From Psammoneis japonica (taxonomy: Eukaryota): a stretch of DNA of 64,000 nucleotides. This document shows positions 478-64,000 of this stretch, piece after piece. Position 1 is the first letter of the stretch, and the number at the start of each line of letters is the position of its first letter. The notes below the pieces were generated by a model. It did no database searches. It was given only the letters and a program-made list of their open reading frames with translations, and was not told the DNA's origin. The position numbers were made by a program, and so were the translations under genes. Location of the stretch: assembly GCA_008632985.1 (NCBI GenBank), contig QPGO01000001.1, forward strand, positions 1 to 64,000, given 5' to 3'.

Positions 478-3050
478 ATGGCTTCGTGGTATACAGAAAC
501 AACAATATTGTCGTCGCTGTTGTCTGCTGCTTACGTCATAACAACACCGATGCCGTTCAAGCATACCGGTCAAGCCCGGAAGCTTTTTCCAATTTCTAAC
601 CTATCTCTACGCGGAACGCAAGTTTATTCTTGTCATCTTGATTCACTTTGTTTGTACCATGGTAATTTGGGGTGAGTAGAGTATATTGTATGATTGAGTT
701 GTGTGTGTGTGGTGTGTGATTTGCTATACTCATCAAACATACCGCCGCACCTCTATACCGTACTCCCTAACATAATACTACAGCACACTTCTTTGTGGTC
801 AAGTTTCATCAACAAGAAAACAAAGTACCCGAGGACGCAAATCGATATTGGTGGAAACGTCTCGCTCCGCCACTCGAGTTTGGAGCCATGCATGCCATTT
901 TGTTTCAAATGGCATTCCTACCGCTCACCATGGCTCGGCTCTCCATTGCGGCAGCCTCCAAAACATCTCTCAATACGTACTTTCCCTTCAACAAGAGTCA
1001 GCGCATTCATATTCATTTGGGATACGTCTTTGGGAGCATTGTTGTGATTGCCACGATTTTCTTTTTTGCCTTTTTTGGATTGCTTTGTTCCGATGGCGAA
1101 CAAGCGTTTTGTGACAAGTTTACGTCGGAAATCATGATTACGGGGTACATTACCGTGGCCTTTGTCTTGATTATCCTCTCTACATCATTCTTTCGAGATT
1201 ACATGCCATACGAAGTCTTTTATGGCATTCATCATTTGGTATTTGCCATGTACCTGGTGGTCTTGTTGCATACGATCGATATCAACGTTCGAAAGGACGG
1301 ACAGAATCGGAGTCAAACCTTCAAGTGGTTTTCGGCGACACTCTTGTACTACGTTTCGGACCGCCTTGCCATGCGGCTTAATCATCGCTACAAGACGCGT
1401 GTCCTTCAAGCCAAAATTGTCAAGAATACAAAGTCGAGTATGATTTTGCTACAGCTCAGACGTCCGTCCTTGTTTCAATACGAACGGGTCAGTACGCGCA
1501 TCTTCGGTTTCCCGACATTGATTCGTATTGGCATCCCTTTTCGATTGGAAGCAGTCCGGATTCCAACGTGTTGGAGTTTTATATTGAAGTCTATGACGAC
1601 AAATCGTGGACGGGAAAACTCTGTCAATTGTTGGGTAATGACGTTAGCCACGAGAATGTTCGTGTTCAAGTCACGGGCCCGTACGGAACACGCTTGGGTG
1701 ATACTCATCGATACTCTCATGCCATGGCTATTGGCAGTGGTTCTGGTGTCGTTCCCATTTTGGGACTCTACAAAAAGCACATTTGTCAGCTACTCCGATT
1801 GGACCCACAAACATACTTTGAAGAACAAGCTCAAATGCATTCGCAACTCAAGCGTATGGAACGAGCGCGAGAACAAACACGTGGATCGTGGCTCAACTAC
1901 TTTTTGCGGTGTTCACCTCAACCGACCCGACACGAAATGGGCGTCATTTCGGGAATCTTTGATTCGAGCGATGCCGAAACCAAGGACTTGCGAGAGGCGG
2001 CCAAGCGTGCGTCTTTACCGATTTATGGCGTCAATATATTGATGCAACTGGTTGTCTTGGGAGTAATCATGTTGGGATTGACCTTGTCGTGGAATACCAT
2101 GCCGTTTGAACTCTACGACGGCATGCGAGAAGTGTTGATTGTTGGCTCGATTGTGTTTCAAGGCGCCTTTGCCGTTGTGTCGATTGGATACTGGGACCGC
2201 GGCTCGTTGCTGGCGTATGTTGATGTTTTGATTGTCATTGCTGGTGCCGTGGCCAATTGGTATTGGTTTGAGTACGACAAGTGGGCCAACTTTGAAGCGG
2301 CCAGAGCATGTGTATTACATCTTGTTGTTTGGATACATGACGGCGCGGTTGTGGCATTCGGCCGTCAAGCCACGATACTGTTCATTGCGGAGCAGCTTGG
2401 AACGACAACACACGAGTTCAGCATTGGACAAGCTGCACTTTGTTTGGATTACGCGTTCATCCACCAACGTTTTGAAGATTGCACCCACAATCATGCAAGA
2501 ATGGAATGCGCTTGTTGCGGCGTGGGGATTGGAGAATGCCGTCAAGGTGTGTCAGGTTTCTATTTACGTTACCGACAAGGACAAGGCCGCCGTGGGCTAT
2601 CTCAAGCAGGAGTTGTCCAAGACGCCCCTTTACAAGCAAGGTGCATTCCATTATGAGCGTCCTGACATTTCCAAATTGTTGGAAGAGCATGCCATGGAAC
2701 GCATTTATGATGAGAGTCGTCCCACCTCGTCTACCCTCTTGTGCTTTTGCGGATCTCCCAAGCTATCATCAGTGATAAGCAAAGCCAAGACCATTGTGGA
2801 TATATCAACAATGATTACGGGAAACAAGTACCACCAAATGGATTTCGTTTCCGAGAGTTACAGTGCCTACACGAAGCGTCCGTCGTCGTCGAACAATAGC
2901 AACGCGGTAGTTGTCGCTGCCTCGGCAAAGACGCCACAGTACAGTGTCTTTATGGATTCACCCAGCTTTATGGAGAAGCAACATTCGGGAGATGAATTGG
3001 ATACGACGGATACCTTTGAAGACAATGAGGACCACCTTATTTCCATTTGA
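478..3050 (+). CDS. Ferric reductase / NADPH oxidase (FRE/NOX) family flavocytochrome, with three apparent 1-nt frameshifts
   Basis: Intron 672-783 (GTGAGT...CAG) joins ...TMVIW-A-HFFVVKF. Heme-type His in TM helices (RIHIHLG, YGIHHLV...LLH). FAD motifs (P)GQYA and WHPFSIGS are read across a frameshift at ~1484. NADPH motifs GPYG, IGSGSGVVP and C-terminal FCGSP...ESY. Other frameshifts at ~585 and ~2292 lie in short T runs. Confidence 0.88.
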
Positions 3051-3299: not shown

Positions 3300-4190
3300 A
3301 TTTTGCTTCATTTTTCCTTGAGCAACTTCCACAAGAAGCTCGAAAATGCCCAACCTGGCCTGATTGCGAAACTTCTGCGTGCAGCCAAGATGGAAGACTG
3401 CAATGGATCTCCAACTCCTGCCCTTCCCATCTCTGTTGGCAGTGACACAGAAGGCCCACCATTCGATGAACCTTGTGACTGCCGATCTGTGGTTGGCATG
3501 TTGATGCATCCAGTGCCCAACAGCTGTCTGGACATCATCTGCACTGCCCATCAATTTGCTTGGTTCTCCTGTGCTCCAAAAGCCTCCCATGCCATTGCTG
3601 TCCAATGCATTCTTTGACACTTGAAGGACACGACTGACAAAGGGCTCATCCCAGCCCCAACCATGGATCAACGACTTGATTGTCATGTTGATGCCAATTT
3701 TGTGGGTCTCTTCCATGTTGAGGATGATCAGGTTCCTGCTTCTGTTAAGTCTCGCACAGGATGTCCAAGCTGCAGCGGCCCCTCATGGTTTTGTCTCTGC
3801 TGTTGGAGGCAGAGAATGTTTCTCTCCCAATCAATGCATGGCCTCATTCCCCTTTGTGAGATCTTGAAGGAAATCAATGCACATGCTTTTGGTCAGCTGG
3901 ACAGGAAGAATGGCATCACCACACATGCCAAGGCTTTCCAACCCACCAACGATGGAACCAATTCACCCCCCATTGCCTCTGCCAGCATCAGCTTGCTCAC
4001 ACGCCAAAACTGTCCCCACAAACCAAGCACACCATCGTGCCTTGTCACCAGTTTTGTGCTGAAGTTGAGGCTTTGGAGATCAAGATTGAGCCTGTCAGCT
4101 CTGCTGCACAGCTTGCTGACCAGTTTGCTGGGGGTTTGACTGCTGCTGATCTGTTCTGCACTTGTTGTGGGGCCCTCATGGGCTGGCGAC
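3300..4190 (+). mobile_element. Ty1/Copia RT-RNase H remnant
   Basis: QPGLIAKLL...DCN...TP, CRSVVGMLMH (consensus YRSVVGMLMY), CHVDANF (YVDADF), SVKSRTG and QLADQF..GL motifs; stops and frameshifts. Confidence 0.9.
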
Positions 4191-5308
4191 TGTTTGTCCT
4201 GCTTCTCTTGATTTTGCAGGCAGGCTGGGAGAAAATGAGTCAATTTGCTGCTGTTCTGTTGCTTTCCCCAAACAACAATGGCAAGTCTGCCACCCGTGGC
4301 AGAATGTGCAATCAAGGAATTGCTGCGGCAACATGAAGAAAACGCAGCAAGCCACCAAGGAAGAAGAGTGTCCGTCAACGGCTGTTTTGGAGGTCCTGCT
4401 TCACTTGAGCTGCACCAATGTAAAAGTGATGCAGGCTTCACACTTTTTCATCTTGCAGTCTTCTTTGCAAACATCCTTTTGAAATGCCTGGCACCACGTG
4501 CAAAGCTTTTGGGTCCATCAGGAATGAACCGCTCTCACAGCTCTTTTTGTGCTCGATCGACGACAATGGGGCGAACAACCCAAGGTCCAAATTGTCATGG
4601 GTCTTTTTGGCAAATGCAAATGACTGTGCACCGGAGTGGAGTGGCTTTCCATGAGACAACAAACGCCAACGTTGGAAAACAAGGGTGGGTCTTTTTTCAA
4701 CAATGGCAGACTTGACAACATGCATTGATTGACCAAGGTGGCAAAACACGCCACGTGTGCACCAACAACAGCATCATCATTTCTGCTCGACAACAACAGG
4801 GGATGATTTCGATTGGTGTTGTTGGTTTGGTTGTTGATGTTGAAGTGAAGTGCGGCATTGGCGGCCTCTCTTTTTGGCACGCACCGGCCGGCTGGCACGC
4901 ACCGGTGTGACTGCACCTATGTGGGTGACAGACGGACGGACCAACCGGATGGCCACATAGTACGCCCGCCTAAAACCAACATGCGTGCAGCGCAACGCTT
5001 GAACCGCACGATCGTTCATCGCGGGAATAAGCATGCAAGCAGTTGGAAGTTGAAGTTATTGGTTATTGTTCTGTTGTTCTTCTGTTATCCCATTGCTTCA
5101 TTTAATTCGTTCCTGCCCTTGTCTCACGGGCAAGCGTCGCTGTTCTACAGCATAATCGATCTCGCCTTGTTGCCATTGTGTTGGTGCCTGTCTCCTTTGC
5201 AGTTGCGTTTCTGCTGAGCAGAGGAACCACCTCTTGTCTCGCGTCTCACCGATCCGGACTCCGCAATTTTGATTCTGCATCTCGCAGAAAGACACAAAAA
5301 CAGCAGAC

Positions 5309-8300
5309 ATGCTTGGTGACATCATCGCCGGCATAGAAGCGGCTTTCAACTTGTGCGCCGTGATTTACAAGAGCTATGAAACGGTAAAGATCATGCCGGA
5401 TTTGGCCAAGACCCTCAAGGACCGCGTACAAATATTCAAACCGCGACTCGAGAAACTCGTTAGGGAATGCCAGGCATCAGGCACATCACAGAAGGTAATT
5501 CCGCTTTTGCATATTCAAAGCTTGAACACGGTGTTGGGTGACATTCAAAAGTACATGAAGAAGCTTCAGGATGACTCTAAACTACGAAAGTTGAAGAATC
5601 GGGTGTTTTATCAGAGTCTCCTGGATGAATATGAAGAGCTCAACACCAAGCTCAATCGTTGTCGGGATGATCTTAAATTTGACTTTGAGTTTGATGTCGA
5701 TGCCGAGAGAAAAGCGTTTGAGAATGAAACGAAAGGTCTCCTACAGTGTCTTATTGATCATCAGGGTCAAGAGCACCGTATTCTGCGCGAGATGCTTCTG
5801 AAGTCCTCAGGTTCATCAAGGGTCACAAAGCGCTAAATCTCAATGAACAAAACAGTCCTGCTATTGTGACCGCTTCTGCATTTATGGACAATAGTGACTC
5901 TGCAACTCTACGAGCTATCATTGATGAGCAGAGTGCCATTGAATATGAACTCCCGCCATCGGAGGTCGTTTTAGAAGATATCGAGCTTGGAGCAGGCACC
6001 TTTGGTGTCGTATACAAGGCAACATACAATAATCAAGATGTTGCCATCAAGAAGCCTCATCGTCGAGAATCGGATGTTTTGGCGGAACTCATGAACCAAG
6101 AAAGATGCAGCGGCTCGCCTTTTGTTGCCCTTATACACGGCTTTGTTTATGTCAATGAGATTCGGTCTATTGTTATGGAGTTCATGCCATGTGGTACTCT
6201 AGGAGGTCTACTACGCCACGCAATGGGAAGGGATGGGATTGTGTCCATCAGCAAGGACCAGCAAAGTCTCGAGGCCACACTAGCTGCGTACACAGTAATT
6301 CAGCTCTTTCACAAGGTTAGTGAGGGAATGCGATTCATCAGTCAACGTAATGTGATACACCGCGACCTCAAGCCGGAGAATATTCTTCTAAGTCAAACTC
6401 TTGACCCCAAGATTGGGGATTTTGGGTCTGCTCGAGAGCTCGCAAACAGCGCGACTCACCTTTCGGGATCCGCTGCTGGATCTGTATACTATATGGCTCC
6501 GGAAGTATTGACGGTCCTTAAAGCTGACAAAGGACAATACTCCTATCCTGCCGACCAGTACAGTTTTGGAATGATCATGGTTAAATGCTGCCATGGTCTG
6601 TTTGGTCAGCAGTCTCGTGTGGACCGGCACGACGAGGACGCGCCTCTTCCAGAGATTCCTCTTCCTGATGCGTTCCCTTCTTCGGTAACAGATATCAAGA
6701 ACAATTGCATTGCTTCAGACCCATTGATGCGCTATGGTCGTGGCACCGCTTCAGAATCACTTCTATCAGAAGCGTTCGAGAAGGTACTGCAGCAATTGGA
6801 TAGCTCTGTCTCTTATCCAAAGATTGATGGGTATTATGGTGACGACGTTGCAGAGGTGGCAAATATTGCTCGGATCGCTTTTGAGAGTAAGACGCATCGT
6901 GGGGTATCTGGCATTATAACTTCGTCCTCATCGCTGATCCCAACACCCGGCATGGAGAAGAAGCCATTGAAGGACGGAGAGCCGAGCTACTCCACCGCGT
7001 CCTTGTCACATTCGTCTACATCCGCGAAAGAACCGGTTCCTCGTGCAAGGAAGGAGAAGAAAAAGAAGAAACCGACTGCTGATCTCCGAGTTCAAAAAGA
7101 GCAAAGTGCATCGTCTCGCAGAAAAAAGCGTCCTGATCTCCGAGTTCAAAAAGAGCAAAGTGCATCGTCTCGCAGGAAAAAGCGTCCAACTCGTTCCGGC
7201 AGCTCGAAAGAAAAAGGACAACCAGCGCAAACTGGATCATCAGCAATTGCTTCAAGTGGTCACAATGACAGTGCTGAAAGAGAACGGGGCGTTAAGGACG
7301 AGACGCAAAATACAAGCGAATATCATAGCCGCACCAGTCGGGAGAGGTCCGTCAACAGCACAGCCACAGCAAGCCTTGCGCTATCGGCTGCCGCGTATGT
7401 CGCGCCAGATGCTTTCACAGTGACGTCTGGAGACCAAGCTGCACAACCCGAAGAACCGGACAGAGATGACCGCGTCACAGTTACTTCAGATTCCAACAAA
7501 GTGATGGAGATGGATCCAGCACAAGTCGTAGAGGCGGTTCCTGCTACTTCTGATGGTGGTGGTGGCGGACAGAATGAGAAAGCAAATGACACAACGCGAA
7601 TTAGTGACGAGGATGAGAATGCTGAAGATGAGCTTCATCGCAAGTACCTTCGCAAACGATTCATTATTCCGGGCGTTGTATTGTTGGCGATTGCAGCGAT
7701 TGTCAGTATTGTTGTTGCAGTAAAGCCGTGGGACACAGGTGGTGGAGGGAGCCCCACTTTCCCCCCTACTGTTTCCCCTACTGTTGCACCCGCCACAGAG
7801 ACTACCGAACGAGCCACCGGTTTGGTCATGAGTTTGATTGGTATTGATACCGAGTTTGATGAAAATGATTCCGAGTTGTGGGCTACGGCAACCAAAGCAT
7901 TCGTCGAGGATTATTACAACACTCGTCGTCGTCGTCGTGGCCTTGGCTATCTCCAGACCCCTCGTATATTACAAGTATCGAATATACAGAATGTCGAGAC
8001 GTCTTTGGATGTTACTAACACCATTGTGGTTGAAGATGGCAATGGTGGAGAACCATCCCTTCGAGTCACATACAACCAAGCTATCACGTATACTTTTGAA
8101 GACAGCAGCAACGAAAACATTTCCATGGATGCCATGGTGACCGAACCATTCAAGACGTCTGATAGTCGATCGGCCTACCAAAAAGACCTCCAGGCGGCGG
8201 GCACCAGTGCTGGAAGCAACATTTTTGACAATTTGATTGGCACTAGTGAAGTTTCAACCAGCACAGCTGCTCCGACACCGTCACCTACAAATAGCATTCC

Positions 8301-10036
8301 AATTACGGAACTACCAACACAAGATCCCGCGTCGCCACCGTCGACTCCGGGTCCAACGACTCTCAATCCAACATCGTTGCCGACGACAAACCCCACTCCT
8401 CGTCCAACTCTCAATCCAACACCTCGTCCTACACTCAATCCAACGCCTCGTCCAACTCTCAATCCAACCCCACGCCCCACTCCATCACCAGCTCCAACAA
8501 CACCCAATCCCACCAGTGGTGGTGGCAGCAGTAGTTTGCCGCCAAACGGTCCATGGAATCCCGTTGGACAAACTTTGCACGGCAAGGCTGCAGAAGATCG
8601 TTTTGGCGATTCCGTGTCCTTGTCTCGTGATGGCAGTGTCATGGCTGTCGGAGCGGATCAAGATTTGTCTTCTTCCAATCCCGGCTATGTTGTTGTGCAA
8701 CGATACAATCCAAACACCCAACAATGGGAACAAATTGGCCAAGAATTGATTGGACAAGCCGGCGGTGACGGTTTTGGAGAGTCTGTTTCGTTAAATGGCG
8801 ACGGCACAATTCTTGCAGTTGGAGCGGATGCAAATGACAGTGGCGGATTGAATGCCGGTCATGTTCGTGTGTTTGAATACAACTCGGCATTGGATCGTTG
8901 GGTCCAACTCGGCAGTGACATTCTTGGACAAGACGCTGGTGGTCGATTTGGTTTTTCCGTGTCGCTCTCGGACGCGGGAGACATTCTTGCCGTGGGAGCG
9001 TTATACGATTACACGGAAAATGGCTCTGATTCTGGATCGGTTCGATTGTTTCAATACGACCGCGGCTCCTCATCCTGGAACCAACTCGGACAAACACTCA
9101 TTGGCCAAGCTGCTAATGATGAATTTGGTATTTCCGTGTCCTTGAATGCGCAGGGAACCATTGTCGGCGTTGGAGCAAATTACAATGATTCGGGTGGAAA
9201 CAATGCGGGTCAAGTGTCGGTGTTTGAATACAATTCTGCCTCATCCAGATGGGATTTGTTGGGCAATCCAATCAATGGCCAAGTCGTTGAAGGGCGGTTT
9301 GGATTTTCGGTTTCTCTTGACGACAGCGGTTTGATCATGGCCGCGGGTGCACCTGGAAGCTACGACGAGACGGTTTTGGTTTATTCATACGACCGCTCGA
9401 CTTTGACGTGGAGTCAACGTGGCCAAACTCTATTGACACAACAGCGTGGCGATTTTTTTGGATGGTCCGTGTTCGGGTGGAAACAATGCGGGTCAAGTGT
9501 CGGTGTTTGAATACATTTCTGCCTCATCAAAATGGGATCTGTTGGGTGATCCAATCAATGGCCAAGTCGTTGATGGTTGGTTTGGATGGTCGGTTTCTCT
9601 TGACGACAGCGGTTTGATCGTGGCCGCGGGTACACCTGGAAGCTACGACGAGACGGTTTTGGTTTATTCATACGACCGCTCGACTTTGACGTGGAGTCAA
9701 CGTGGCCAAACTCTATTGACACAACAGCGTGGCGATTTTTTTGGATGGTCCGTGTCATTGAGTGGCAATGGAAATGTCTTGGCTGTTGGAAGCAATCGGC
9801 ATGACGTCAATGGATTGATCAATGCGGGTCAAGTTCGAATCTTTCAGCACGACAGCAATGCAGACGAATGGAAACAAGTTGGAAACCCTTTAAATGGTGA
9901 GGCTGAAGACAATGGTTTTGGAGGATCCATTTCATTGTCGTCCGACGGAAGCATCGTTGGAGTTGGTGCACATTTTGCTGATGTCAATGGCGGCGCATCC
10001 GGATCCGCGTACGCATTCACGGTAAATGACAATTAG
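5309..10036 (+). CDS. Receptor-like protein kinase: N-terminal MLKL-like helical bundle, Ser/Thr/TKL kinase, single TM helix, Pro/Thr stalk, FG-GAP beta-propeller
   Basis: ORFs 5309-5836, 5866-9510 and 9446-10036 join via frameshifts at ~5828 (A run) and ~9471 (283-bp duplication). Kinase motifs GAGTFG, VAIK, HRDLKPEN, DFG, APE are intact. TM FIIPGVVLLAIAAIVSIVVAV at ~7660-7722. Repeats of FG.SVSL..DG..LAVGA. Confidence 0.85.
7079..7186 (+). repeat. 54-bp in-frame tandem repeat (DLRVQKEQSASSRRKKRP x2)
   Basis: Two near-identical copies read directly from the sequence. Confidence 0.95.
8350..8510 (+). repeat. 24-bp coding repeats (PTLNPTPR) of the Pro/Thr stalk
   Basis: Repeated ccaactctcaatccaac units. 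Confidence 0.9.
9189..9754 (+). repeat. 283-bp tandem duplication within the FG-GAP region
   Basis: 9189-9471 and 9472-9754 both start ttcgggtggaaacaatgcggg and end gatggtccgtg; several substitutions between copies. Confidence 0.95.
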
Positions 10037-12165
10037 AAAATGTATTTTGCGCTACATCCTCTTGTATCAATCACACTGTATTTTTTGTAGTTTAGTTCAT
10101 TTGGTAGACCGTACATTTGCGTCGTTTGGCTCGTGTCATTGTGTGCTGTTTTTCGCGTTTGTTCCAAAAATCAAAAAAGTCTGTCTGTCGTGCGATTCCG
10201 CTAGTCTATCACGAACCACACATCACACACACACACATCACACATCGGCTCGCGGTCTTGAACAACCATGACGCTATCAACAGCACTACGAATCATCATG
10301 TAACAACAACAACAACGATGTCATAACGTTTGGAGGATTATCCGCCTCGTGAGTAGAACACATCAACAATGAGAGTTGTTTTGAACAAACTGTGTTGTTG
10401 TTGCATGAGTCGAATGCTGCCGCTTGTGAAAATCATTGACACGCTGCTGCTGCCACGCACGCTACAATATTGTTGTTGTACATGTCTACGCACTCTCATA
10501 CTCATCACTCCTTCTCTTTCACACTCTCTCTCTCTCTCTCTCTTGACTACACGTAATGATTCACTTAAGTGTTGTCAAGACACACAAGTCCTTTGAGGGC
10601 TTGACTGCAGCTACCGGGGAGCATGCCCACAGAGTATGGAATCAGCAGCAGAGCCGGAACCAGTCAATCAAAAGTCGAACAACTGTCTCAGCAAGCACTC
10701 ATAGGCATGGTGGAGCGAAGGTATTGTACGAGCACACTGGATGCATGTTGTTGTCATGCATGTCTACGTACTCTCTCAAACGAATTAAAAATGGCCTCCA
10801 TCCACACTAGTTTGGGCGTGCGACTCTGTGAATGTTGCTGAGCTCTTTCGAGATGTGGGCTCTGAACAACGCGTCGGTTATTATGCAGTGTGTTTTGAAT
10901 GTACGTGTTTGATGTTGTTTCCATGTATTGCTGGGTCATAACCATCTGCAGCGGCCTGGGTGGAAACGTATGGATTTTTTGGAAAAGAGTTGCAACTCGT
11001 ATAAAGTGGATATTGGAAACCACGTGTGTCTCGCGGTCGGACAGTTCTCCAGCACAAACCATGGCGGCGCCTGTTGGATATCATACAGTGAACAAGTAGC
11101 GGGTGGAACGGGCTTGTTGGAAACTGCTGTGGTGGGACAAGAAGAAAAAGCGCGATGAGGAAATCAACATCCAAACAACCACAACCGAAGGGGGGTGCAC
11201 GGTGCCGGTACTGCTACTACTACTACTACTGCTACTGCTGTACGAACTATATAACAACAATGACACGGATGATTATGACTTTGGAAATGTCGATATCTTT
11301 GTACTGACTTTTCTATTGGCACTCGTCAATATTAACGATGACAACGACAAGAAGGATGACGAAGAGTATTAGTAGTATCAACAATGGCACTAGTAACAAT
11401 GGCGCGGTGGTGGAAATATCATTTCATCCTATGGAGACTTGAAAGCACGATTTGCCGATAAACTCAACAAAAAAAAGGGACCGCTTGGCTGCTTGTGGGA
11501 TGTCTTTGTTCCTCCCTCCTACTGCTGCGAATAATAAGGACAAGGACAATGAAAACTACAATGACCTTGGAGATGTCGATAGAGGAAGGGGTTCCTTTGA
11601 TACCACATGCGTGGCGGAATATAAAAATGTACAATTGCAAGAACGAAACTGAATCCTCGAGATGGTTGGGAAGCGATGGAGGATGAAGTCGTGAATCATG
11701 AACGCTGCTCCGACTCGACTGTTGTTGCAAATGATATATTGTCGGCCTATACTGTGCAACCCGTCTGGAAGACACTCTCTGCATTGCTATGGGGTGTTTG
11801 TCTTGGAATCGGTAGAGCCTGAACCATGGTCTCTCAAAAATTCAAACTCCTGTCTCGGCAAACAATGCAGGCACGGTGGAGCAAGCGTACTGGATGCAAC
11901 GAACGATTCGTGACGTGGTATTGGAATTTCTGCGCTCTCTTCATTTCGCCAGATGCTTTTTTTGGATTTCCAAGAAACTCTCTAGACTGACTGCTCTCCA
12001 CTCTCTAGCTGTAGCTCTAGAGATCCCTACATAAAGAGTAACACGTCCCCAGCTGCTAGTAGAGCCACTCTCTCACATGACAGTGCAACAGAGAGAGAGT
12101 GCTTTGGACTTGAGAAAAGAGAGGACGCACACCGCATGCTCTGCTAGAGTAGCTAGCTGCACAGT

Positions 12166-49410: not shown

Positions 49411-50385
49411 TTAATTGTCCTCAATCTTCGGCCATATGCTATCGAAATCAACAACCCAGTCAGCAGTTGGTAGGCCAACTTCGACCAAAAGTTTGCATTT
49501 CGTCCATATCTCGTCCACCTCGACAACATTGTCGTCTAGACAAAGCGCCGCAACGGAAAAATGTAGCCCAGTATGTGATGATAACATCGAACGAGCGTTC
49601 TGTCGCGTTTGAATATCGTTCAAGCTGATCCCCGAAAGAAGCATAATTGAAGCCACGAGACATGTTAAATCATACCGAAGTGAGGCCTCTGTCCCGCAGT
49701 CCATTCCAAAAGCAGGCGAGGTGGCTGTCAACATGTCTCCGTATGCTGTACACGATCCAAAGTCTATGGTAACCACCGTCCGGTTTCCTGCCTGGAACAT
49801 CATATTCGAGGGTTTGATATCGCCATGACACATTTCTTTGTTGGAAAATGCCTTAATGGTAGCAAGGCCACATAGCGCCACATTCAGAATTGTGGCTTCG
49901 TTCACACTTGCGTGCGATACAGGAATGGGATAGAAAGGGCACACCATCGCAACTCGATTCTCGTCGATTCGTATGCTGTCAAAGACTGGCATTACAGACG
50001 GGCACTGCTGTTTCTTGTGAATCAGCTGGGACGTCTTCACCTCGGTCTCTATTGTTGCTGTGTCTCCAATTTTGGCGCAGTATAGATCGGAACCTCGAAT
50101 AACATACTGTAGCACGGTCTTTTGTTGGCCGAATGCCATGGGCACCAATCCGTCGAAAATATAGTCAGAGACGAGTTTGGACCTTGTCGCGGTTTTTACC
50201 ATTCGCTGGATTTTGATGTAGAGAGAACTGATGTCGCGATCCTTCATTTTGTCATTCATGATCAATACAGCCTGTGAAGAGAACGTCGTCAGTAAGCACG
50301 ATGCTTCCGAGTCGGTCAATTCTTTCTTCACAACACGCTCCATTTCCTCTGTGGGATCCTTAGCTGCTGTGGCTGACATATTCAA
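49411..50385 (-). CDS. Small intronless atypical protein kinase
   Basis: Intact 324-aa ORF with CAK, HGDIKPSN and IDFGS; no clear Gly-rich loop or APE; normal TA and Tyr content. Confidence 0.8.
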   Translation of the reverse strand: MNMSATAAKDPTEEMERVVKKELTDSEASCLLTTFSSQAVLIMNDKMKDRDISSLYIKIQRMVKTATRSKLVSDYIFDGLVPMAFGQQKTVLQYVIRGSDLYCAKIGDTATIETEVKTSQLIHKKQQCPSVMPVFDSIRIDENRVAMVCPFYPIPVSHASVNEATILNVALCGLATIKAFSNKEMCHGDIKPSNMMFQAGNRTVVTIDFGSCTAYGDMLTATSPAFGMDCGTEASLRYDLTCLVASIMLLSGISLNDIQTRQNARSMLSSHTGLHFSVAALCLDDNVVEVDEIWTKCKLLVEVGLPTADWVVDFDSIWPKIEDN

Positions 50386-50566
50386 AGTTGTTTTATTTGC
50401 GTAGTTGTACTCGTTAGTTGTTTAGCTTGTTTCGTGCCTTGTCGGATCTGGTGGTTGTCGTCGATGTTCATGTTATCTTGCTTGTTGGCCATCGTCCATC
50501 GCACGGTATGTAGACGGTAGAAGTACTGGTAGTATCGTGTAGATTAGAGGACGCCTGTTGTGTTTC

Positions 50567-50851: not shown

Positions 50852-53800
50852 TGCGACAACTCTCTCGTCTGAGAGCTGGGAGAGGTCGACGGAAGGTTGA
50901 GCAGATGATCGCATCGATGGCAGTGGGCTGACGACGATGGCAGAATCGGCAAAGCTGCCAATGTCTTGTTGCACTGGATGTTGTGATTGTGAGCAGAAAA
51001 AGGGGACAAGTTCTCCAAAAGAAGGGCGGGAAACCGCACGCGCAAGTGAAGAGCGCGCGAGTCGCGCATGAGTTCGCACTGTGTTGGAGCTCCCTCTCGA
51101 ACGAAGAAGCTGCCAGCCGCAAAGCAACTTGCAAATGGACTCAAATTTGACAGTGACGAGTCCTTTTGTTAGAATGTCAGCGTGTTGCAGGTCTGCTGCA
51201 ATCTTGGATGCAGCAACTCGATTTGGTTTGAGCTGCGAACGAAACCAGCGACACTTGATTGCGCAGTGCTTGGACCTTGGCGCAATTCGGCCAGGTTCCA
51301 TGTTAGCTGGAGTCAAGGCTCCAGCATTGTCCTCCCACATGGTGGTCCTGATGGTCTTGGTGGTCCCCAGACCAACTCCAGTGCCTTGGGAAATGGCTTG
51401 TGCGGTGCGAAGAAAGGGAAGGACAGTTTTCATGCATGTGGAGAGAGCGCTGCACTCTGCTTCCATGGTTGAGAGTGCGATCTCGGGTGCAAGCTTGCCA
51501 GACCAGATGACAGGACAGTTTGAAATGCAAGTGACAAATCCTGTTCAGCTCTTGACGCAAGCCGGGTCTTGCTTGTCTTCATGAGGCCACAATCCAGCAA
51601 AATCTGAGTCCACAAAAACGTCGATGTTGAAGTCCCCAGATGGCTTGAGGATTGAACCTTCCTCCAGTGTGCCCTCCAGGTGTTGGCCGATCTTTTCGAG
51701 GGCTTGTTCATGCAAGCAGCATGGACTGTGAACAAATCTTGCGGCAGAGCCAACTGCACAGGTGATGTCGGGCCTTGAATGGCCTTGGAGATGCTGGAGC
51801 ATGCCAACAACACTGGCACAATTAAAGGCTCCATTTGGTGGGTCTCCATCGGTGTCCTTGACCAACGGAGTCAACAGTGTGGGTGTTTGGGCCTTTGGCA
51901 GATGGCTTGCATTGAGGGCTTCGATGACACGCTTGGCCAGGCCACTCTGAGTGAGCTTGACAGTGCTGTTGTTGCTGTCACGATGGATGTGGACGCCTGA
52001 AAAACCTGCGACGGAATCCTCGACTTCGATGGCCAGACCACCATCAATTTTGAGTTTTTCGATCACTTCGTTGATGTGCTCTTGCTTTGGTGAAAAGAAC
52101 AGTGTGTCGTCAACACACACAAGGCAGATGACCTCATCAGACACAAAGAGACACGGATCAACATCATCTTGAGATTGAAATCCGGCATCTTCTAGTTTTG
52201 ATTTGAGGTGCAGGAAAAAGTTGTGCGGTCCTTGTTTGAGACCATGCACGGTCTTCTTGAGTCAAAGTGCTTTGCCGGGCTCAGTGCATCCGCGAGGCAT
52301 TTGTGTGAACATGCCAGAGCGTTCCCACTCTTCGGGTGTCATGGCACCCCATTTTGGATCTTTGTCAATCGGAGCATGCACGAAAGCCGCAACACAATCA
52401 ACTTGTTTCATGGAGAGCTCAAGAATTTGCAAAAGCATGAGCATCAACCGCACTGTTGTCCAATTGACAACCGGAGCAAAGGTGTCAAAACAATCAACAC
52501 CTTCCAATTGCTTGTTGCTGCGGACACAGAATCGGGCTTTGTGTTTTTGGATTGACCCATCAGGGCATCATTTGCATTTGAAGGCCCAAGTGGATGGCAG
52601 GACATTCATCCAATCTTGGTGGTCGACTTCCTCCCAAGCATCTTTGCCGTTGACAAGGGAGTCAATTTTGACATCACAAGCTTTGAGACAGGCTGCGCGA
52701 TCGGGTCCACTCACAGCTTCTTCCCAAGTGGGGTTGTCGGCAGAATTGGCGCCAGCTGCCAGAGCCAGAGGATGCATTTCTTCAAGTGTGCCGTGGACTT
52801 GATCAGTGTTTTTGTGGAAGAGGTTGATCATTGCATGCAAGTCTTTTGATCGGAGTGCATTTGCAATGCTGTCCCATTTTGGGGCCATCAGAAACTGCTT
52901 GTTGAGCGTCTCTGATTTGACCATTCATTTGGGATTCTTGCAGGCTGTCGGCAACTTGTTTGGAGGAATGCGAATGTCAGCCATCATGGCTTCAACAAGG
53001 CGGTCCGGTTTCTTGATGGTGCGGCCGCTGCGAGTCCGAGCAGGCAGAGCAGCAGGTTGAGGAGTGGCATTCGGAGCTGTTGGTGTGAGCTCAGCCACGT
53101 CTGAACCAAGATCCAGGTCTTCAGGCAAGTCATGATGATTGACAAGAGACAAATCGTCGTCGCTGTTGTCACCAAACTCATCAATTTCGACTCCCTCTGG
53201 AGCCTCTGAAGAAACAGATGCTAGATCATCCAATGATTCAGGATCAGCAGGAAGCTCTCCCTCTGGAGATGTTGCGGAAGAGGTTGGAGAAAGAGGAGGG
53301 TTGCCAGATGAGGCGCAGTCTGACGATGGTTCTCACGGTGGTGGCGCTCTTCGGGCATCAGCCAATCGTCATGCAGTGCGGGGAGGTGATGGCGAGGGTC
53401 CTCGGAAGGCTTGAGCATGGTTGACTGCTGAGTCAGTTGCAAGCAGGGATTCCCAAAGGTCTGCGGAGAAAGGGACGTCCTGAAAGCACCCCCCCCAGAG
53501 TCGCTGTTGGGTGCAGTTGAAAAGTGGTTGTCGTAGACCACATGGTGCTGAGGGCTGACACAGCCAGTCACGAGGTTGAGGATCAGGCCAATGTTTGTAG
53601 AATGAGCCGGGGAGATGCCAAGGTGTTGGCCGCGGCAGCTGCGTGGGTCCCACTTCGGAACTTTCTTGCCATCCTGTAGTTTGGGATCTAAAACATGCGC
53701 GGGACAGCCCCGCACTTGCAAGTGCTGTAAATGCGTGCAGAAATCAAAGTGTTGCTTGGAGCAGATCTCAACAGGAGCAGTTCGAGTGTCGATTTTGGGA

Positions 53801-56800
53801 AGGTGATTCCACAAATGGGCAGAGTGAGTCATGGCAAACGGCCAAAGTTCCAGATTGGCGGCATCAGGCCACATGAGGACGGCATGGAGCAACACAGATC
53901 TTGCCCATGAGGCAACAGTTTGGATGGAGCATTTGGCGATGCCATTTTGATGATGGGCACCAACACCAGAGAAGTCTGTCATCTGGTGGTTTTCTTCAAG
54001 ATCTTGCATGAAGGCCTCAGAGCCGAAAGGGATGTCATCAGCAAGGTGTTGCTTGACCTGGACCCCAAATTGGTCACCAAGCTGCTCAAAGGCATGCTTG
54101 GCACGAACAGTTTCACCTGCAGTGAGACCAACTTGATGGGTCAGGAACACGCAGCTAGAAGCGTGATCGACAAAAATCGTGCCGCCACTGCACTTGTCTT
54201 TCTTGGGTTCGTGCCCCTTGGTTGACGGAAGACGTCCAGGGACGCAGCTGATGCACTGGTCGACGGAGACACGTTGACCTGGAGACAAATTGCCCTCTCA
54301 CAACACCATGGGCGGAGGATTGGATGCACTGCAGCGGGCTGGAGTGCACCGCTTTTGTTTCGCCAGTTGACAGGCGGCACACAATGGCGGTGCACAACCG
54401 ACCACCGCATTGGATTTGGGTTGAAGGACTTGGGATTTTGCAGGATCCCTTGGCACAGCACTGAGACGTTGCATGTGCTGGAAGCTGGCGTGACTGAGTT
54501 TTTGATGAAGCAGAGAAGCTCCTTTTGACCTGGAGTGAGGTTCTGATTTGTCTGTGAAGTGACTGACAAGAAGGCATCTAGTCGGTCGGCTGTGCTGATC
54601 GGAGCCAAATTGCATTTTGAAACTCCAGCGGATGTTGGTGTGGACATCATCATAAAAGGTAAGTTGCTGTCCTTGTTGTGCGGGAACTCAAGGGTGTCCC
54701 CACCTGGGAGCGTTGGGGTGGCTTTGTCACCATGCACTGAACATTCACCTTGATTTCCATTTTCTTGAAAACAGGATTGCAGGCTAAAAAGGTGGATGGA
54801 GGCGTCAGGAACGTAACAAGCCTTGGTGCGAACAGTGCGCACAACGTTCCAACAGTCGATTGTGCCCCATTTGACGACGTAACCTTGACCCACAACACGA
54901 GTGGTTGAGGACAATCCGTTGATCGTGGTGAGTTCTGCAGGTTCAAGAGGGCCTGTGAAGTCACTCAAGTGCGGAGTGAGAGAGGAAGAGGCGCCGGCGT
55001 CAAGTGCCACGGGCGCATCAACAGGCAAGGCTGACAACAGAGCTTGACATTGCGAGCTGTCAAGATGTTGTAAATCGGCTAACGACTTGATTGGTTTCTG
55101 GCAAGGATGCATCAGTTGGAGACGGTCCAGAAGTCGAGGTTTGGTGGGAGAACATGGCTGCGCCACCAAAACCAGTCGAGCAGGTTGCTGCTGTTGTTTG
55201 GGACAGATTGGTTGCTGTGCAGGAGAGTGCAGGTGCTTCTCCGCAAGCTCGGAGCACATCCAATGAGGCAAGTGCTTTTGTCATGTGAAATTGTGCAAGA
55301 GGGTCGACACCTCGCACGAACTCATCCAAAGAGATGCCGAGCTGCATGTTGCACACAATCCAGGATTGGTGTGGCAGTCGGTGTCTGATGCGGGCAAACT
55401 CTTCGAGCTCGTGTGCTTTGGGGTCTTCCGCTGGTGCAAAATTGGAGGGTGCTGAATCAGCAGGTTTGAATTCAGCAGACTTGGTCTGCAGGCAATCGTC
55501 TGGCGGATCTGACAACATGACAAAATCAGTTGGCGTTGCACCGCATGGCAAGTCGCACATCTCAGAGGGCAGATGCAGCAGGCGATGCTTGATTTGTGCA
55601 CAAGCTTTGTTGGCTTCTTGAATGGGATCAATGCAGGCAAACCTGGGCTTCTTGGGTTTCAGAGGCTTGACTCGACGCCTTGGTTTTAAGAGTTTCCAGG
55701 ACTTGGATCGGCGACACTGCCTGAAATTGGTTTCTTCAACAGCAGCATCGTCCGGCATGGGTGCTTGACGGTTGCAGTGCCAAGTCGTTGGATGAAGGAA
55801 GGAACGAGGAGGGTCTCTTTGTGGGATTCGAGCTGGACAACGGTCCAAACAACGAACTTTTGCGTGATGAAACAATTTGTGGCGCATCCGATGAAGATGA
55901 GGATGATGATGTGGGACATGTTCCAATGACGAGGTGACAATGAACCAAGGCATGTCATCACATGAGAGCGAAGGATTCTTGGAAAAGAGCAGCAAGCAGA
56001 AAAACAATCCACCTGCTGACACAAAAAGAAACTGCAAAACAGCAGAAACAGCTGCGTCTCCTCCCTCTCCAAGAATCTGGAGAGCAAACCATAAGAGGAG
56101 GGACTGCACTGCAGTCACACAAGCCTGGATGTCCCTTCCAGGACAAGGAGTTTTGCTGAACAGCGAAAAGGGGTGGGCCAAACACTCAAAGAAAGAGGCG
56201 CGCCTGGAACTTCAGGTGAAGGAAGCGAAGAGACCAGTGATGGTCTTGGCAACCTCATGCTTGGCGTTCGCCACAGCCACTTCACGGTCAGGGTTCAGAG
56301 TGGAAGCAGGGGCTGGAGTGGGTGCAGGAGCAGGCACTGGAGGTGCGGGAGGCGCGGTGGCAGCACCAGCGACCTGAGCAACAGGGCGCCAGTGCTTGGT
56401 CTTGTAATGATGGCAGTGATCTTTACCATCAATGTGGCGGTGACTGTTGTTGTTCTTTTCGGCATCAGTCGGTGGTTGCCATTTCTCAGGAATGGTCTTG
56501 GTGGGCTCACCATCCTTCTCAGAGGAAGCAGTGGTCTTGTTCTGAGCCCGTTTTGCGTCGAAAAACAGTTTCTTGTTGGCTCGCACGCGAGCATCGTTGA
56601 CGGGTTTCTTGCAGTCAGATGGAGGATGAGGGCCACCACAATTGAAGCAGGTGACCACTCCGGCAACAAAGGAGGTGGCATTCTTCTTAGCAGTCACGCC
56701 GGACCACTGGTCGAAAGACACAAGGGCCAGACAGTGAGCCTCAGCAAATTTGAGGAGATCAGCCACAGATGTGGTGCTGATGGTTGGACCACTGGACTTG

Positions 56801-58657: not shown

Positions 58658-60312
58658 ATGTTCAAAGCTGCCGTGAATGGTCCGAATAGACGACGTAACC
58701 GTGTTGGAGACGCCACCGTCGCTTCGAATCCAGAAACAACTTCTTCCGCGACTTTCTCTGAACAAGGCATTCCCTTTCGCGTCGAGGCTCTGGAGAAAGC
58801 TCCGACCCATATTCAGTCCAAGCTGAATGGACAGCATGCATGTTTAGTTGCTTGTGGCGGGCCGTCGGGGCAGGCACTTTTGCAGCGACACAAGGAGCAG
58901 GCCGACAGTGACGTGATTCTCATTCATTTTCACGACGTGCCCGTTTTGATTTTGCGAGTTCTTTTGCTGCAAGATGAATCAAACGACGTTCTATATCTGT
59001 CAGAAGTTTACCGACATACACATAAGGTATGCGAGGATACAACATACAATATAACGTGCTGTTCTCGGCCGTCGTGTAGTAGTGGCTACGATGCGTTATC
59101 TTCAGTTCTTGTGGAGGTTTCTTTGCGACATCACAGTGACGAGGACGACTATCCCATTCAGGTGCCATCTGCAGCGATTATAAAACAGCTCATGTCTTGC
59201 ACCTATCAATCTATCTTGACAACTAACGAACTGATTTTAGTGGAAGAAGATGAGGTAGAGTTGGTGTGTCGAATTGCTGAGGTCCGCATCCATGCAGGCG
59301 GAGAGGAGGCTGTACTCTCCTTGGAAGAAGCAACAATGGACGACCCATTCCGAGGACAAGTGGTTGTAGATACAGAGTTTTTTGTTTCGGTATCCGGTGG
59401 GAGCTCGTCTGCGTTGGAAATATCCGGAAAAAAACAGCGCCCATTCCCCAAAGGCAAGATGCCTTCCGATGTTGTTCACGGTACGTATCGCAACGTCATC
59501 ATACTATATTCGTGTCGGTCTACAACACCTCGTCTTAACTCCTTTTTTCTTTTTTATTAGTCACCACTCGCGATGGTGAATGGTTTCCCGTACGCAGGTT
59601 ACTTCTAGCACCGTGTTTGCAACTCACACGCTACGTTCAAGCTGGACGAGGCAAATACAAGAACGAAATACCCACGCTTTCCGATGAAGAGCGGAGCGAA
59701 GATGCTCCAACAGACGATGGTCATCCTCATTGTAAAGTTGATATCGATTGCCATGTATTCGACCGGGTTTTACTTTATCTCACGTCTCTTGTATACCCGC
59801 AAAACAAGTTTGTGCCAGAGCTGTCCGAAAACACAGCGCTGGCCGATGCCGCCGACTTTCTCGGAATCGAATCCTTATCCGATTTGTGTCGAAAGCAAGT
59901 ATCGACGTTTGATTCCAGAGTACGAAGGAATTCGTATATTCCTTTCTCTGAGGTGAAGTTGCGCAACGAGATTGGAGGAGAGTTACTCTTGATTATAGAT
60001 GGAATGGTTTTGGATATCACCCGTTGGATTGACGAACATCCTGGTGGACCGACCATTATTCCTACACAGGCACTCAATGTGGACGCAACGGTGTTCTTTG
60101 AGCTTTATCATGTGTCCCGACAATCGTTTGTGTATCTCAAATCGTTCTACATTGGCGAGCTGCGTCCTGAAGACTATTCGCAGCTTCTCGAGTCAAACGA
60201 CAATAATGCCAGGGCAACGGACGGGTTTCTTCAGTCTCTGCGTTCCTTTACAAAGGAATGGCGTGTGCAAATATCACAGGGTGAAGCGGAAAAGATACAC
60301 AAGAGTCTGTAA
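58658..60312 (+). CDS. BTB/POZ-like plus C-terminal cytochrome b5-like heme-binding domain protein
   Basis: Intron 59481-59560 (GTACGT...TTAG) joins DVVH-V-TTRDGEWFPV in frame with the ORF at 59617. b5 motif IIDGMVLDIT.WIDEHPGG...DAT..FE.YH. Confidence 0.82.
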
Positions 60313-60333
60313 CGATTGGATTTCATAAGTTAA

Positions 60334-63300: not shown

Positions 63301-64000
63301 TGTGGGTTCATTCCAAAGCTTACCAAATCTTCAATGTCGTGAACTCCCGCTTTTGTTTCTTCTCCTCCGACACTACAGCACTGCGACTTGAGGAATGCTC
63401 ATTGGCCATGCTGGCGTGACGCTGAGTCGAAAGCTGTCGATAGTGTGGGCAGGTGGGCTTTTTTTTGTTGTGCGACATGATCCAACCCGAACTGTTTGGG
63501 TTCTTGCCACCGTCGTCATCGTCTTGAGAGCTCTGGTCGACATTGCTGGTGCCGCAACCGTCACTCGGTAAATCTATCGGAGGATTATCGTCCTCATAAA
63601 AAAAGTCTTCTGATTTGGCAAGCCTTCGGCGGATTTTTTCCGTATTGGATACCCGCACTTGGCATTCTCGATTGACATTGATCTTATTCGTAGGTGGATC
63701 GCTGCCGTCGCGAGGAACAAGTGACTTGTGAATACAGAGACGATCCCGACTCCCCAGTACAGCCATGCGAGGACGGTATGGTGTTTTCTTGAGAGACGCC
63801 ACCATTTGAGCCACTTGCGAGTGTGTCCGACTGCAATAAATAATTCTTGGCTGCTTTTCGTCGTTAGGGTGGGTCTTGGCGTGATACCGCTGCCAAGCCA
63901 AGACGGCACAAAGGATCGCTACGCTTTTCCCTGTACCGGTGGGGCTTTCCAGCACGACGTGGTGTGAATTTTTCAAAGCTCGGATCAAATGGAAAGCCAT
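60334..64000 (-). CDS. XPD-family Fe-S DNA helicase, FANCJ/RTEL1-like (5' end outside the window)
   Basis: [67 protein letters not shown]. Introns ~61135-61213 and ~62220-62288. Frameshifts near 63320-63400, ~62650 and ~62030-62190. Confidence 0.92.

Follow-up and report, generated by a model that had tools for sequence, protein, structure and literature searches.

The gene at positions 5309-10036 of the plus strand of the window, by which we mean the whole 64,000-nucleotide stretch analysed, probably encodes a single-pass type II receptor-like kinase. In this reading, to which we give a probability of about 0.55, one gene carries a cytosolic part laid out as in MLKL (a bundle of the MLKL_N/HeLo kind, a brace and an active TKL kinase), followed by a tether, a transmembrane helix, a stalk and a seven-blade propeller. 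Read as one protein, the interval contains in order a helical N-domain, a helical linker, a TKL-type kinase, a Ser/Lys/Arg-rich linker, a transmembrane helix, a Pro/Thr stalk and an FG-GAP propeller (Table 1). As assembled, the gene is spread over three frames (5273-5836, 5758-9510 and 9437-10036 in the ORF list). The N-terminal ORF (5309-5836, 175 aa) begins at the first ATG after a stop codon at 5270-5272 and has its own stop at 5834-5836, and the final stop codon of the gene is 10034-10036. Upstream of the receptor gene, at 771-3050, lies the FRE/NOX-family neighbour named in the initial annotation, with Pfam matches to Ferric_reduct, FAD_binding_8 and NAD_binding_6.

Table 1. Features of the receptor gene, with positions in the window and the evidence for each.
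Feature	Position	Strand	Evidence
N-terminal all-helical domain, MLKL_N-like, aa 1-125	5309..5683	+	Pfam PF22215; low-confidence AF2 helices; Atlas neighbours
Brace-like helical linker from bundle to kinase	5696..5940	+	AF2 helices; P0002 model; predicted self-association interface
One-base assembly gap, T absent	5795..5796	+	Contigs of two DNA runs; homologue alignment
Protein kinase domain, TKL-like, motifs intact	5983..6738	+	Pkinase; PK_Tyr_Ser-Thr; motif reading
Cytosolic Ser/Lys/Arg/Glu-rich linker, 272 aa	6832..7659	+	Composition
Single transmembrane helix, basic cluster on kinase side	7660..7722	+	Kyte-Doolittle scan
Membrane-proximal ectodomain segment without family match	7723..8253	+	No Pfam match
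Pro/Thr-rich mucin-like stalk	8254..8518	+	Composition; tandem repeats
FG-GAP beta-propeller	8560..10036	+	Pfam FG-GAP_2; motif count
283-nt tandem duplication, 2.0 copies, frame-shifting	9189..9755	+	Tandem-repeat detection

The N-domain and the kinase are one protein, as first proposed. The splice junction at 5828 which that proposal implied does not exist; the frame changes at one missing T after 5795. The only contig of DNA run X1 and the only contig of DNA run X2 both carry the extra T at this place, at full depth (250.6 of 250.6 and 105.3 of 105.3, respectively), and over the matched span of about 1.9 kb (5200-7108) these contigs differ from the window in no other letter. With the T restored, the N-domain ORF runs on into the kinase ORF. 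In both homologues found, P0001 and P0002, N-domain, linker and kinase lie in a single frame, and when these are aligned with the window, its frame-1 sequence from 5797 follows immediately after the conserved end of the N-domain. Because the contigs of two runs hold the T and both homologues read through, the fusion is real. Two GT..AG stretches had been considered as introns, and both are moot given the T in the contigs: one of 34 nt near 5828 is too short and of the wrong phase, and one of 45 nt (5811-5855) cannot join the ORFs because its removal keeps the frame. The assembled letters could also be read as two genes, one for a helical protein of 175 aa (5309-5836) and one for a kinase receptor that begins at an ATG near 5884, since the first ORF stops at 5834-5836 and an in-frame ATG of the kinase ORF follows 48 nt on. 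This reading is already contradicted by the frame-fusing T in the contigs of both DNA runs, by the fusion in both homologues and by frame-1 conservation that extends upstream of the ATG near 5884, and we regard it as very improbable.

Judged by the searches made, the family is rare. A phmmer search with the N-domain among 1.84 billion representatives returned two matches, both close relatives (P0001 and P0002), and no plant protein. Further searches for N-domain homologues gave none, either by word index (0 of 815 candidates) or by profile (0 of 4601), and a tblastn search of the rest of the 64-kb window revealed no paralogue of either the N-domain or the kinase. In metagenomes 541 stretches fitted the N-domain patterns, with none confirmed, and in viral contigs 241 stretches were matched, again with none confirmed. 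The kinase patterns matched 239 metagenome stretches; the sole one confirmed (L001) has 28% identity and was judged to be a generic kinase. P0002 keeps the cytosolic module and has a different ectodomain.

The resemblance of the N-domain to MLKL is more than an impression, in that the profile match is borderline-significant. Pfam MLKL_N (PF22215) aligns with aa 13-122 over profile positions 5-108 of 142. With aa 1-162 the match has an E value of 3.6e-6, already corrected for 24,736 models, and scores 27.0 bits, borderline against the gathering score of 27 for the family; with the whole 175-aa ORF the values are 4.4e-6 and 26.7 bits. In the same scan the next matches, which are of the coiled-coil type, score about 11 bits lower than MLKL_N, and other helical families match at E values of 0.02-0.08. 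MLKL_N was matched by two of the three family members, P0001 at an E value of 0.032, and HeLo (PF14479) by one of the three (E 0.026). For P0002 alone, MLKL_N was absent from the Pfam scan at E ≤ 1. Language-model feature neighbours in the Atlas point the same way: those of the window N-domain score 0.95-0.90 and include 7 of 30 in the MLKL_N set as well as others in MCAfunc and RPW8, and residues 1-165 of P0002, a homologue with 47% identity, likewise fall near MLKL_N/MCAfunc/RPW8 clusters (0.91-0.88).

Structure prediction gave the initial annotation's claim of an MLKL-like domain no such support. AF2 on the three-sequence alignment placed helices at about 2-28, 30-57, 63-87 and 98-122, with a pLDDT of 49 and helices 1 and 2 merged; the N-domain in the P0002 model has a pLDDT of 48-69. 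With the window model, which has that pLDDT and a shallow alignment, Foldseek returned no match at E ≤ 0.001, and fold matches to the low-confidence N-domain models were generic bundles, with no MLKL among them. The matches to the P0002 model cover the kinase residues 212-503 only. PDB searches with the single N-domain sequence and with the three-member profile gave chance-level matches only and no MLKL. The three members differ in the net charge of their bundle core (+5, 0 and -6), and this variation lends no support to a conserved basic lipid-binding face.

These results leave some room for the N-domain being an ordinary helical or coiled-coil module for oligomerisation and regulation, with no link to MLKL or HeLo, in a protein that is a plain type II receptor-like kinase. 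The MLKL_N score exactly at the cut-off, the further helical families at E 0.02-0.08, the lack of an MLKL link in the PDB sequence searches, the generic bundles from the structural searches and a predicted tetramer interface that is a plain parallel helix bundle (see below) would all fit such a module. We nevertheless consider it rather unlikely: the E value of 3.6e-6 is corrected for the number of models and the score is about 11 bits over the coiled-coil background, a second member matches MLKL_N and the third HeLo, and two members fall separately among the MLKL_N/MCAfunc/RPW8 clusters. Moreover, a position N-terminal to a TKL kinase, joined by a helical linker, is the layout of MLKL and of Pm13 (PMC10951266; 10.1101/681015).

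Between the bundle and the kinase, the window model has a helix at 130-161 (AF2, low confidence), and the linker of the P0002 model has helices at 126-149, 155-178, 190-200 and 207-219 with pLDDT values of 52-77. The first frame break falls within the linker: aa 130-162 are read in frame 2, and what follows is in frame 1. Modelling predicts that the N-domain self-associates through this brace-like helix. Four copies of aa 1-162 gave an ipSAE of 0.86 against 0.01 for the best control, a value to be read against a calibration made on two copies. In that calibration, 21 of 30 proteins solved as one-chain pairs attained this mark and none of the 23 with single-chain structures did; for eukaryotes, 17 of 29 attained it, only 1 of 7 among those lacking an older solved relative, and none of 30 single-chain proteins did. 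At least 97% of contacts are shared among the four-copy runs, and the partner pLDDT is at least 85. The predicted interface consists mostly of residues 112-162, and the contacts of lowest error pair like-numbered residues within 130-148, that is, a parallel helix bundle. Since long helices often come out as coiled coils in models, the oligomer result may be an artefact.

The remaining cytosolic part and the topology agree with what was initially described, namely a kinase with all catalytic motifs and one transmembrane helix preceded by basic residues in type II orientation. The kinase matches Pkinase (E 5.6e-36) and PK_Tyr_Ser-Thr (E 5e-31), and its G-loop, VAIK, HRD, DFG and APE motifs are all present (HCD and DFG in P0002); its closest solved sequences are B-Raf/Raf (E 2.8e-20). 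Such intact motifs suggest that the kinase is catalytically competent. As it is not a pseudokinase, control by an upstream kinase in the manner of MLKL need not apply. The post-kinase linker (39 Ser, 23 Lys and 22 Arg, also Glu-rich) matches no Pfam family and holds an in-frame 54-nt tandem repeat at 7079-7187. Besides the first 19 residues, the transmembrane helix is the sole stretch above 1.6 in the Kyte-Doolittle scan; the N-terminus itself has acidic residues and, in the alignment with the homologues, falls at the beginning of their helical domain. Five K/R lie within the 12 residues before the transmembrane helix, on the side of the kinase, and one K lies after it, with the same pattern in P0002. 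By the positive-inside rule this favours an N-in, C-out orientation, which would place about 770 aa outside. The order of kinase, transmembrane helix and ectodomain is the reverse of that in type I receptor kinases (plant RLK, animal RTK), which begin with a signal peptide and an N-terminal ectodomain and carry the kinase at the C-terminus.

In the ectodomain, the membrane-proximal segment matches no Pfam family and has no solved relative (best E 0.13). The 88-aa stalk, with 29 Pro, 23 Thr and tandem repeats of 24/48 nt, has the mucin-like composition claimed for it. An FG-GAP propeller had also been claimed, and FG-GAP_2 repeats were found, four stretches in the middle ORF and three in the last (E values of 6.9e-20 and 2.3e-15); a frame-breaking duplication inside the propeller had been overlooked. 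The only solved sequence relative of the propeller is a designed propeller, 8pju_A (E 2.6e-5). Eight blade motifs start at 8602, 8773, 8947, 9124, 9298, 9581, 9740 and 9917, and that at 9581 is a duplicate. The second frame change is a 283-nt tandem duplication (95% matches), and the frame as assembled stops at 9508-9510. Because 13 of 283 positions differ between the copies, all within the first 161 nt, this is no trivial identical duplicate. The FG-GAP part is multi-copy and fragmented in the contigs, with a read depth of up to about 2100 versus about 250 for the kinase part, and no listed contig piece bridges the junction 9472/9473. An intron at this place was rejected: 205 GT..AG candidates restore the frame and none rebuilds a regular blade.

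The duplication may be real, in which case the protein would end at 9510 with five complete blades, as a decaying or truncated copy giving a non-functional or shortened receptor. Several observations would fit this: the copies differ at 13/283 positions, 283 is not divisible by three, 0 of the 205 intron candidates yields a natural blade junction, and recombination among paralogues is plausible because the FG-GAP sequence is multi-copy. Against this, removal of one copy leaves exactly seven blades, the canonical number for a propeller, in a frame open to 10036, and the tail is open and repeat-perfect over 560 nt, which is unexpected if it were long dead. The other frame break in this gene, at 5795, proved an assembly error, so the assembly is imperfect here, and two diverged alleles placed in tandem by the assembler would look identical. 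We consider a real truncation improbable and keep the seven-blade receptor as the preferred reading.

If the receptor is built in this way, binding of a ligand or contact with a surface at the propeller would cluster the receptors, and their kinases would trans-phosphorylate. The brace helices could then zip into a parallel oligomer and free the N-terminal bundle, which would already be held at the plasma membrane's cytosolic face. The freed bundle may act on the membrane by an ion leak, pore or channel, or may recruit downstream partners, and the output could be either death or a non-lethal signal. In animals, plants and fungi, MLKL-type bundles are known to carry out cell death or to serve as immune effectors. 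It is conceivable, though less probable, that the protein is a self-contained, necroptosis-like death switch, in which the propeller senses a pathogen, a virus or a neighbouring cell, the kinase licenses its own MLKL-type bundle, and the brace oligomer permeabilises the plasma membrane. In that case the family, in which P0002 joins the same cytosolic module to another ectodomain, would be a repertoire of immune receptors with exchangeable sensors. Receptor, kinase and executioner would then be in one polypeptide, the shortest conceivable path from an outside signal to a membrane effector. To our knowledge, all known MLKL-type bundles are soluble and activated by a separate sensor (RIPK3, NLRs or amyloid templating). 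Among the literature matches listed for MLKL and diatoms, all were biomedical or unrelated and none dealt with such a receptor; for this reason the architecture of a type II receptor kinase headed by an MLKL_N-like domain appears to be undescribed, and would be so whether or not the protein causes death. In a survey of 67 protists, no homologues of necroptosis regulators were reported, and the pathway was concluded to be probably vertebrate-only (PMC7539657). The gene would offer a tractable single-gene system for how phosphorylation frees such bundles, and it raises the questions of whether they evolved repeatedly by domain shuffling and whether regulated lysis serves as defence in unicellular algae.

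The protein shares with MLKL and the plant MLKLs (AtMLKL1-3) a helical, MLKL_N-matching N-domain followed by helices and a kinase fold of the TKL type. In plant MLKLs, too, the kinase-like domain is followed by a region rich in Ser (10.1101/681015). Self-association through the brace region is known in MLKL and is a prediction here. MLKLs are pseudokinases, whereas VAIK, HRD and DFG are kept in the present protein; they are also soluble, whereas this one has a transmembrane anchor and a large ectodomain and implies no upstream kinase of the RIPK type. In wheat Pm13, one chain carries an MLKL_NTD, a brace of three helices and a serine/threonine kinase domain, and the protein acts in pathogen resistance (PMC10951266). 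The Pm13 type thus resembles our candidate in having an MLKL_NTD-like domain, brace-like helices and a motif-intact kinase in one chain. It differs in lacking a transmembrane helix and ectodomain; its own kinase is of the plant LRR_8B RLK/Pelle group, and there is no similarity detectable by phmmer.

Among stramenopiles, receptor-like TKL kinases with a transmembrane helix evolved separately from the receptor kinases of plants and animals (PMC3019232). The oomycete TKL subfamilies and the diatom LRR kinases likewise combine a TKL kinase, a transmembrane helix and an ectodomain. The described stramenopile receptors have a signal peptide or anchor and a C-terminal cytoplasmic kinase, whereas here the kinase comes first, behind an MLKL_N-like head, and the ectodomain last. 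With integrin alpha the protein shares seven FG-GAP repeats (when the duplicate is left out) as the outermost domain of a single-pass protein. An integrin alpha subunit is a type I protein that has a short tail, lacks a kinase, carries thigh and calf legs where our protein has the Pro/Thr stalk, and pairs with a beta subunit. Finally, the candidate bundle would fall into one broad class with the HeLo/HELL, RPW8/CC-R and MCAfunc domains, that of N-terminal helical domains acting on membranes. Those domains differ in being activated by amyloid templating, an NLR resistosome or channel assembly rather than by a covalently attached receptor kinase.

The N-terminal domain and the kinase lie in different reading frames of the assembled gene, and an intron at 5828 was one possible explanation. 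We compared Logan contigs from three DNA sequencing runs (X1, X2 and X3; one sample, one study) with the window over 5200-10200. A 3024-nt contig of X1 spans 5200-7108 without a mismatch and differs from the window there only by an additional T behind 5795. A 1982-nt contig of X2 matches in the same way, with the identical insertion, and contigs of X3 gave no match over 5200-10200. The depth supporting the inserted T was 250.6/250.6 in X1 and 105.3/105.3 in X2. When this T is restored, the N-terminal ORF is continuous with the kinase ORF. The frame change at 5795 is thus an assembly error, not an intron, and the single missing T leaves no role for a splice site at 5828. The runs may derive from the sample behind the assembly; what they reveal is therefore an error of the assembly, not biology observed independently. 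Two homologues, P0001 and P0002, support the fusion independently, since in both of them N-domain, linker and kinase are encoded in one frame. In the alignment with these homologues, the frame-1 sequence from 5797 follows the conserved N-domain end directly, apart from a gap of six residues. The proposed joining of the N-terminal ORF to the kinase therefore holds at the DNA and protein-family level, which also answers the objection that the N-terminal ORF is a separate transcript.

The other parts and coordinates listed in the initial annotation were correct, as judged by ORFs, Pfam, translated motifs, a hydropathy scan and repeats. In the first ORF, Pfam MLKL_N matches aa 13-122 with E 4.4e-6 and 26.7 bits (cut-off 27). 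The kinase of the second ORF matches Pkinase with E 5.6e-36, and its G-loop, VAIK, HRD, DFG and APE motifs are intact. Besides the first 19 residues, the only stretch with hydropathy above 1.6 is the TM helix (nt 7660-7722), with five K/R in the 12 residues before it versus one K after. C-terminal of the TM follow a 177-aa segment without family, an 88-aa Pro/Thr stalk (P29, T23) made partly of 24/48-nt repeats, and the propeller. Contigs from both runs depart from the window within the stalk (8394-8546): they show C>T changes at two positions, 8394 and 8469, and lack 6 nt at 8527. This reflects either variation in length or a further assembly difference, the stretch being repetitive. Ser, Lys and Arg are abundant in the cytosolic tether of 272 aa (S39, K23, R22). 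An in-frame 54-nt tandem repeat at 7079-7187 (2.0 copies, 98% matches) doubles an 18-aa basic motif of this tether. Contigs stop at its edges (7108/7146) and its depth is about 1.7-2.4 times that of the flanks, as expected if two copies are real.

The second frame change coincides with a tandem duplication at 9189-9755 (Tandem Repeats Finder; 2.0 copies of a 283-nt unit, 95% matches). The unit length is not divisible by three, so the reading frame runs into a stop at 9508-9510. The two copies differ at 13 positions, every one within the first 161 nt. The middle ORF contains five blade motifs; the last has three, one of which duplicates the fifth. Removal of the duplication gives seven blades and a frame open to 10036 (1481 aa); the sequence as assembled, with T added behind 5795, gives 1400 aa. 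An intron was also considered, and none of 205 frame-restoring GT..AG candidates gave a regular blade junction. The summed contig depth over 8540-9875 in X1 was about 900-2100 versus about 250 over the kinase, with many contigs 90-95% alike. The FG-GAP propeller sequence thus appears to be part of a large multi-copy family in Psammoneis japonica, and for this reason the contigs are fragmented in the 9189-9755 region, which is either a real duplication or two alleles placed in tandem.

The resemblance of the N-domain to MLKL was examined by several methods. As a 162-aa query against the whole Pfam library, it scored 27.0 bits with MLKL_N (E 3.6e-6), a score that equals the curated cut-off of 27 and lies about 11 bits above the next matches, which were coiled-coil-type families (E 0.02-0.08). 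Two of the three members (the window protein, P0001 and P0002) match MLKL_N, and one matches HeLo (E 0.026). In an ESM Atlas feature search the top neighbour of the window domain was an unnamed eukaryotic cluster (0.95), followed by a cluster in which 22% of the members carry MLKL_N (0.94) and whose commonest recorded phylum is Oomycota; further MLKL_N, MCAfunc and RPW8 clusters came at 0.91-0.87. Residues 1-165 of P0002 recovered the same families at 0.91-0.83. A short motif in helix 2 of the three members presumably resembles the matching stretch of vertebrate MLKL. In the PDB, sequence searches started from the single domain or from a three-member profile gave no match to MLKL. AlphaFold2 on the three-sequence alignment placed helices at 2-57, 63-87, 98-122 and 130-161 with a mean pLDDT of 49, and Foldseek with this low-confidence model returned no match at E <= 0.001. 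A P0002 model from a 48-row alignment reached pLDDT 48-69 in the N-domain versus 80-97 in the kinase. The family has few members and the alignment is too shallow, so the structural comparison is uninformative. The MLKL likeness claimed for this domain is supported by the borderline Pfam match and the Atlas neighbours and finds no counterpart in the PDB and Foldseek searches; we estimate a probability of about 0.7 that the domain truly belongs to the MLKL_N/HeLo class of bundles.

The two homologues were the only proteins found when aa 1-162 were scanned with HMMER against 1,835,955,588 representatives (E <= 0.001). P0001 has 310 aa and 51% identity; P0002 has 700 aa and 47% identity. P0002 comprises N-domain, kinase, a TM with matching charge asymmetry and a Pro-rich stalk, and its catalytic loop reads HCD, not HRD (a non-RD kinase). 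When the kinase part was used in a word-index search, P0002 was again the one close relative (E 4e-92); the next match, at E 8e-31, was a generic kinase. The P0002 ectodomain begins differently from that of the window protein, and the P0002 sequence is cut after 700 aa by the end of its contig (at most 6918 nt). The start of this ectodomain presumably resembles the cap region of LRR proteins from stramenopiles; the 700 aa present contain no LRR according to Pfam. The differing start is a hint that ectodomains have been swapped within the family.

Four copies of aa 1-162 were folded together with controls. The ipSAE was 0.86 in three of three runs, and 0.01 for the best control. In calibration sets of two copies, 21 of 30 proteins solved as pairs of one chain reached this mark, as against none of 23 solved as single chains; among eukaryotic proteins, 17 of 29 pairs reached it (only one of seven without an older solved relative) and none of 30 single chains. 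Long helices may score high in such oligomer models without biological meaning. The four-copy runs had at least 97% of contacts in common, with a partner pLDDT of at least 85, and in the best-defined contacts, within 130-148, each residue meets its like-numbered counterpart. A parallel bundle of the linker helix is predicted, with residues 38-53 and 62-71 at its flanks, and the model lends support to a putative oligomerisation through the brace.

The domain order, topology signals, catalytic motifs and family conservation of the cytosolic module are the established parts of a possible mechanism. A ligand of the propeller would cluster the receptors, the clustered kinases would trans-phosphorylate, the brace would then oligomerise, and the N-terminal bundle would be freed onto the inner leaflet. 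One may speculate that the 272-aa tether binds acidic lipids or bears regulatory phosphosites. The net charge of the bundle differs among the three members, so we do not claim a conserved lipid-binding face. The immunity conferred by plant MLKLs is separable from cell death (10.1101/681015); by analogy, a non-lethal output of the window protein would be as likely as lysis.

The FRE/NOX-family neighbour named in the initial annotation is present. It occupies three overlapping frames (771-2042, 1382-2656 and 2232-3050), which could be split by introns or by single-base assembly errors like that at 5795. Its adjacency alone says little, and further immune-type genes were not seen in the rest of the 64-kb window. 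The partial kinase ORF had no similarity to the kinase of the gene under study (tblastn, E <= 1e-3). Just upstream of the gene, ORF 3618-4139 looks retroelement-like by eye and has no Pfam match. In the XPD/Rad3-type helicase, a PDZ domain shares an ORF with the DEAD_2 part, an unusual combination.

Features of the gene under study and of its surroundings
Feature	Position	Strand	Remarks
First ORF, stop-to-stop	5273-5836	+	First ATG 5309; three overlapping frames in total
Second ORF, stop-to-stop	5758-9510	+	Pkinase and four FG-GAP_2 stretches
Third ORF, stop-to-stop	9437-10036	+	Three FG-GAP_2 stretches
Ferric reductase/NOX-type gene	771-3050, upstream	+	Ferric_reduct, FAD_binding_8, NAD_binding_6
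Partial protein kinase ORF	49411-50418	-	Pkinase E 1.2e-5, below cut-off
Copia-type retroelement remains	51545-54294	-	RVT_2 E 1.3e-7; retroviral SH3-like domain E 5e-6
Cytochrome b5 domain ORF	within 59539-63395	+	
XPD/Rad3-type helicase	within 59539-63395	-	DEAD_2, Helicase_C_2

The significance of the finding lies in its architecture and rarity. Among the literature matches listed, no title concerned MLKL-like domains of diatoms or of any other alga, and a survey of 67 protists reports that homologues of necroptosis regulators were not found (PMC7539657). MLKL proper is a soluble pseudokinase; the window protein has neither of these two defining features and is therefore not classed as MLKL. 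Plant Pm13-type proteins have the same MLKL_NTD-brace-active-kinase layout; the TM and the ectodomain are additional in the window protein. With the stramenopile receptor-like kinases (PMC3019232) it has the TM-TKL plan in common, whereas its order is inverted and it carries an additional head domain.
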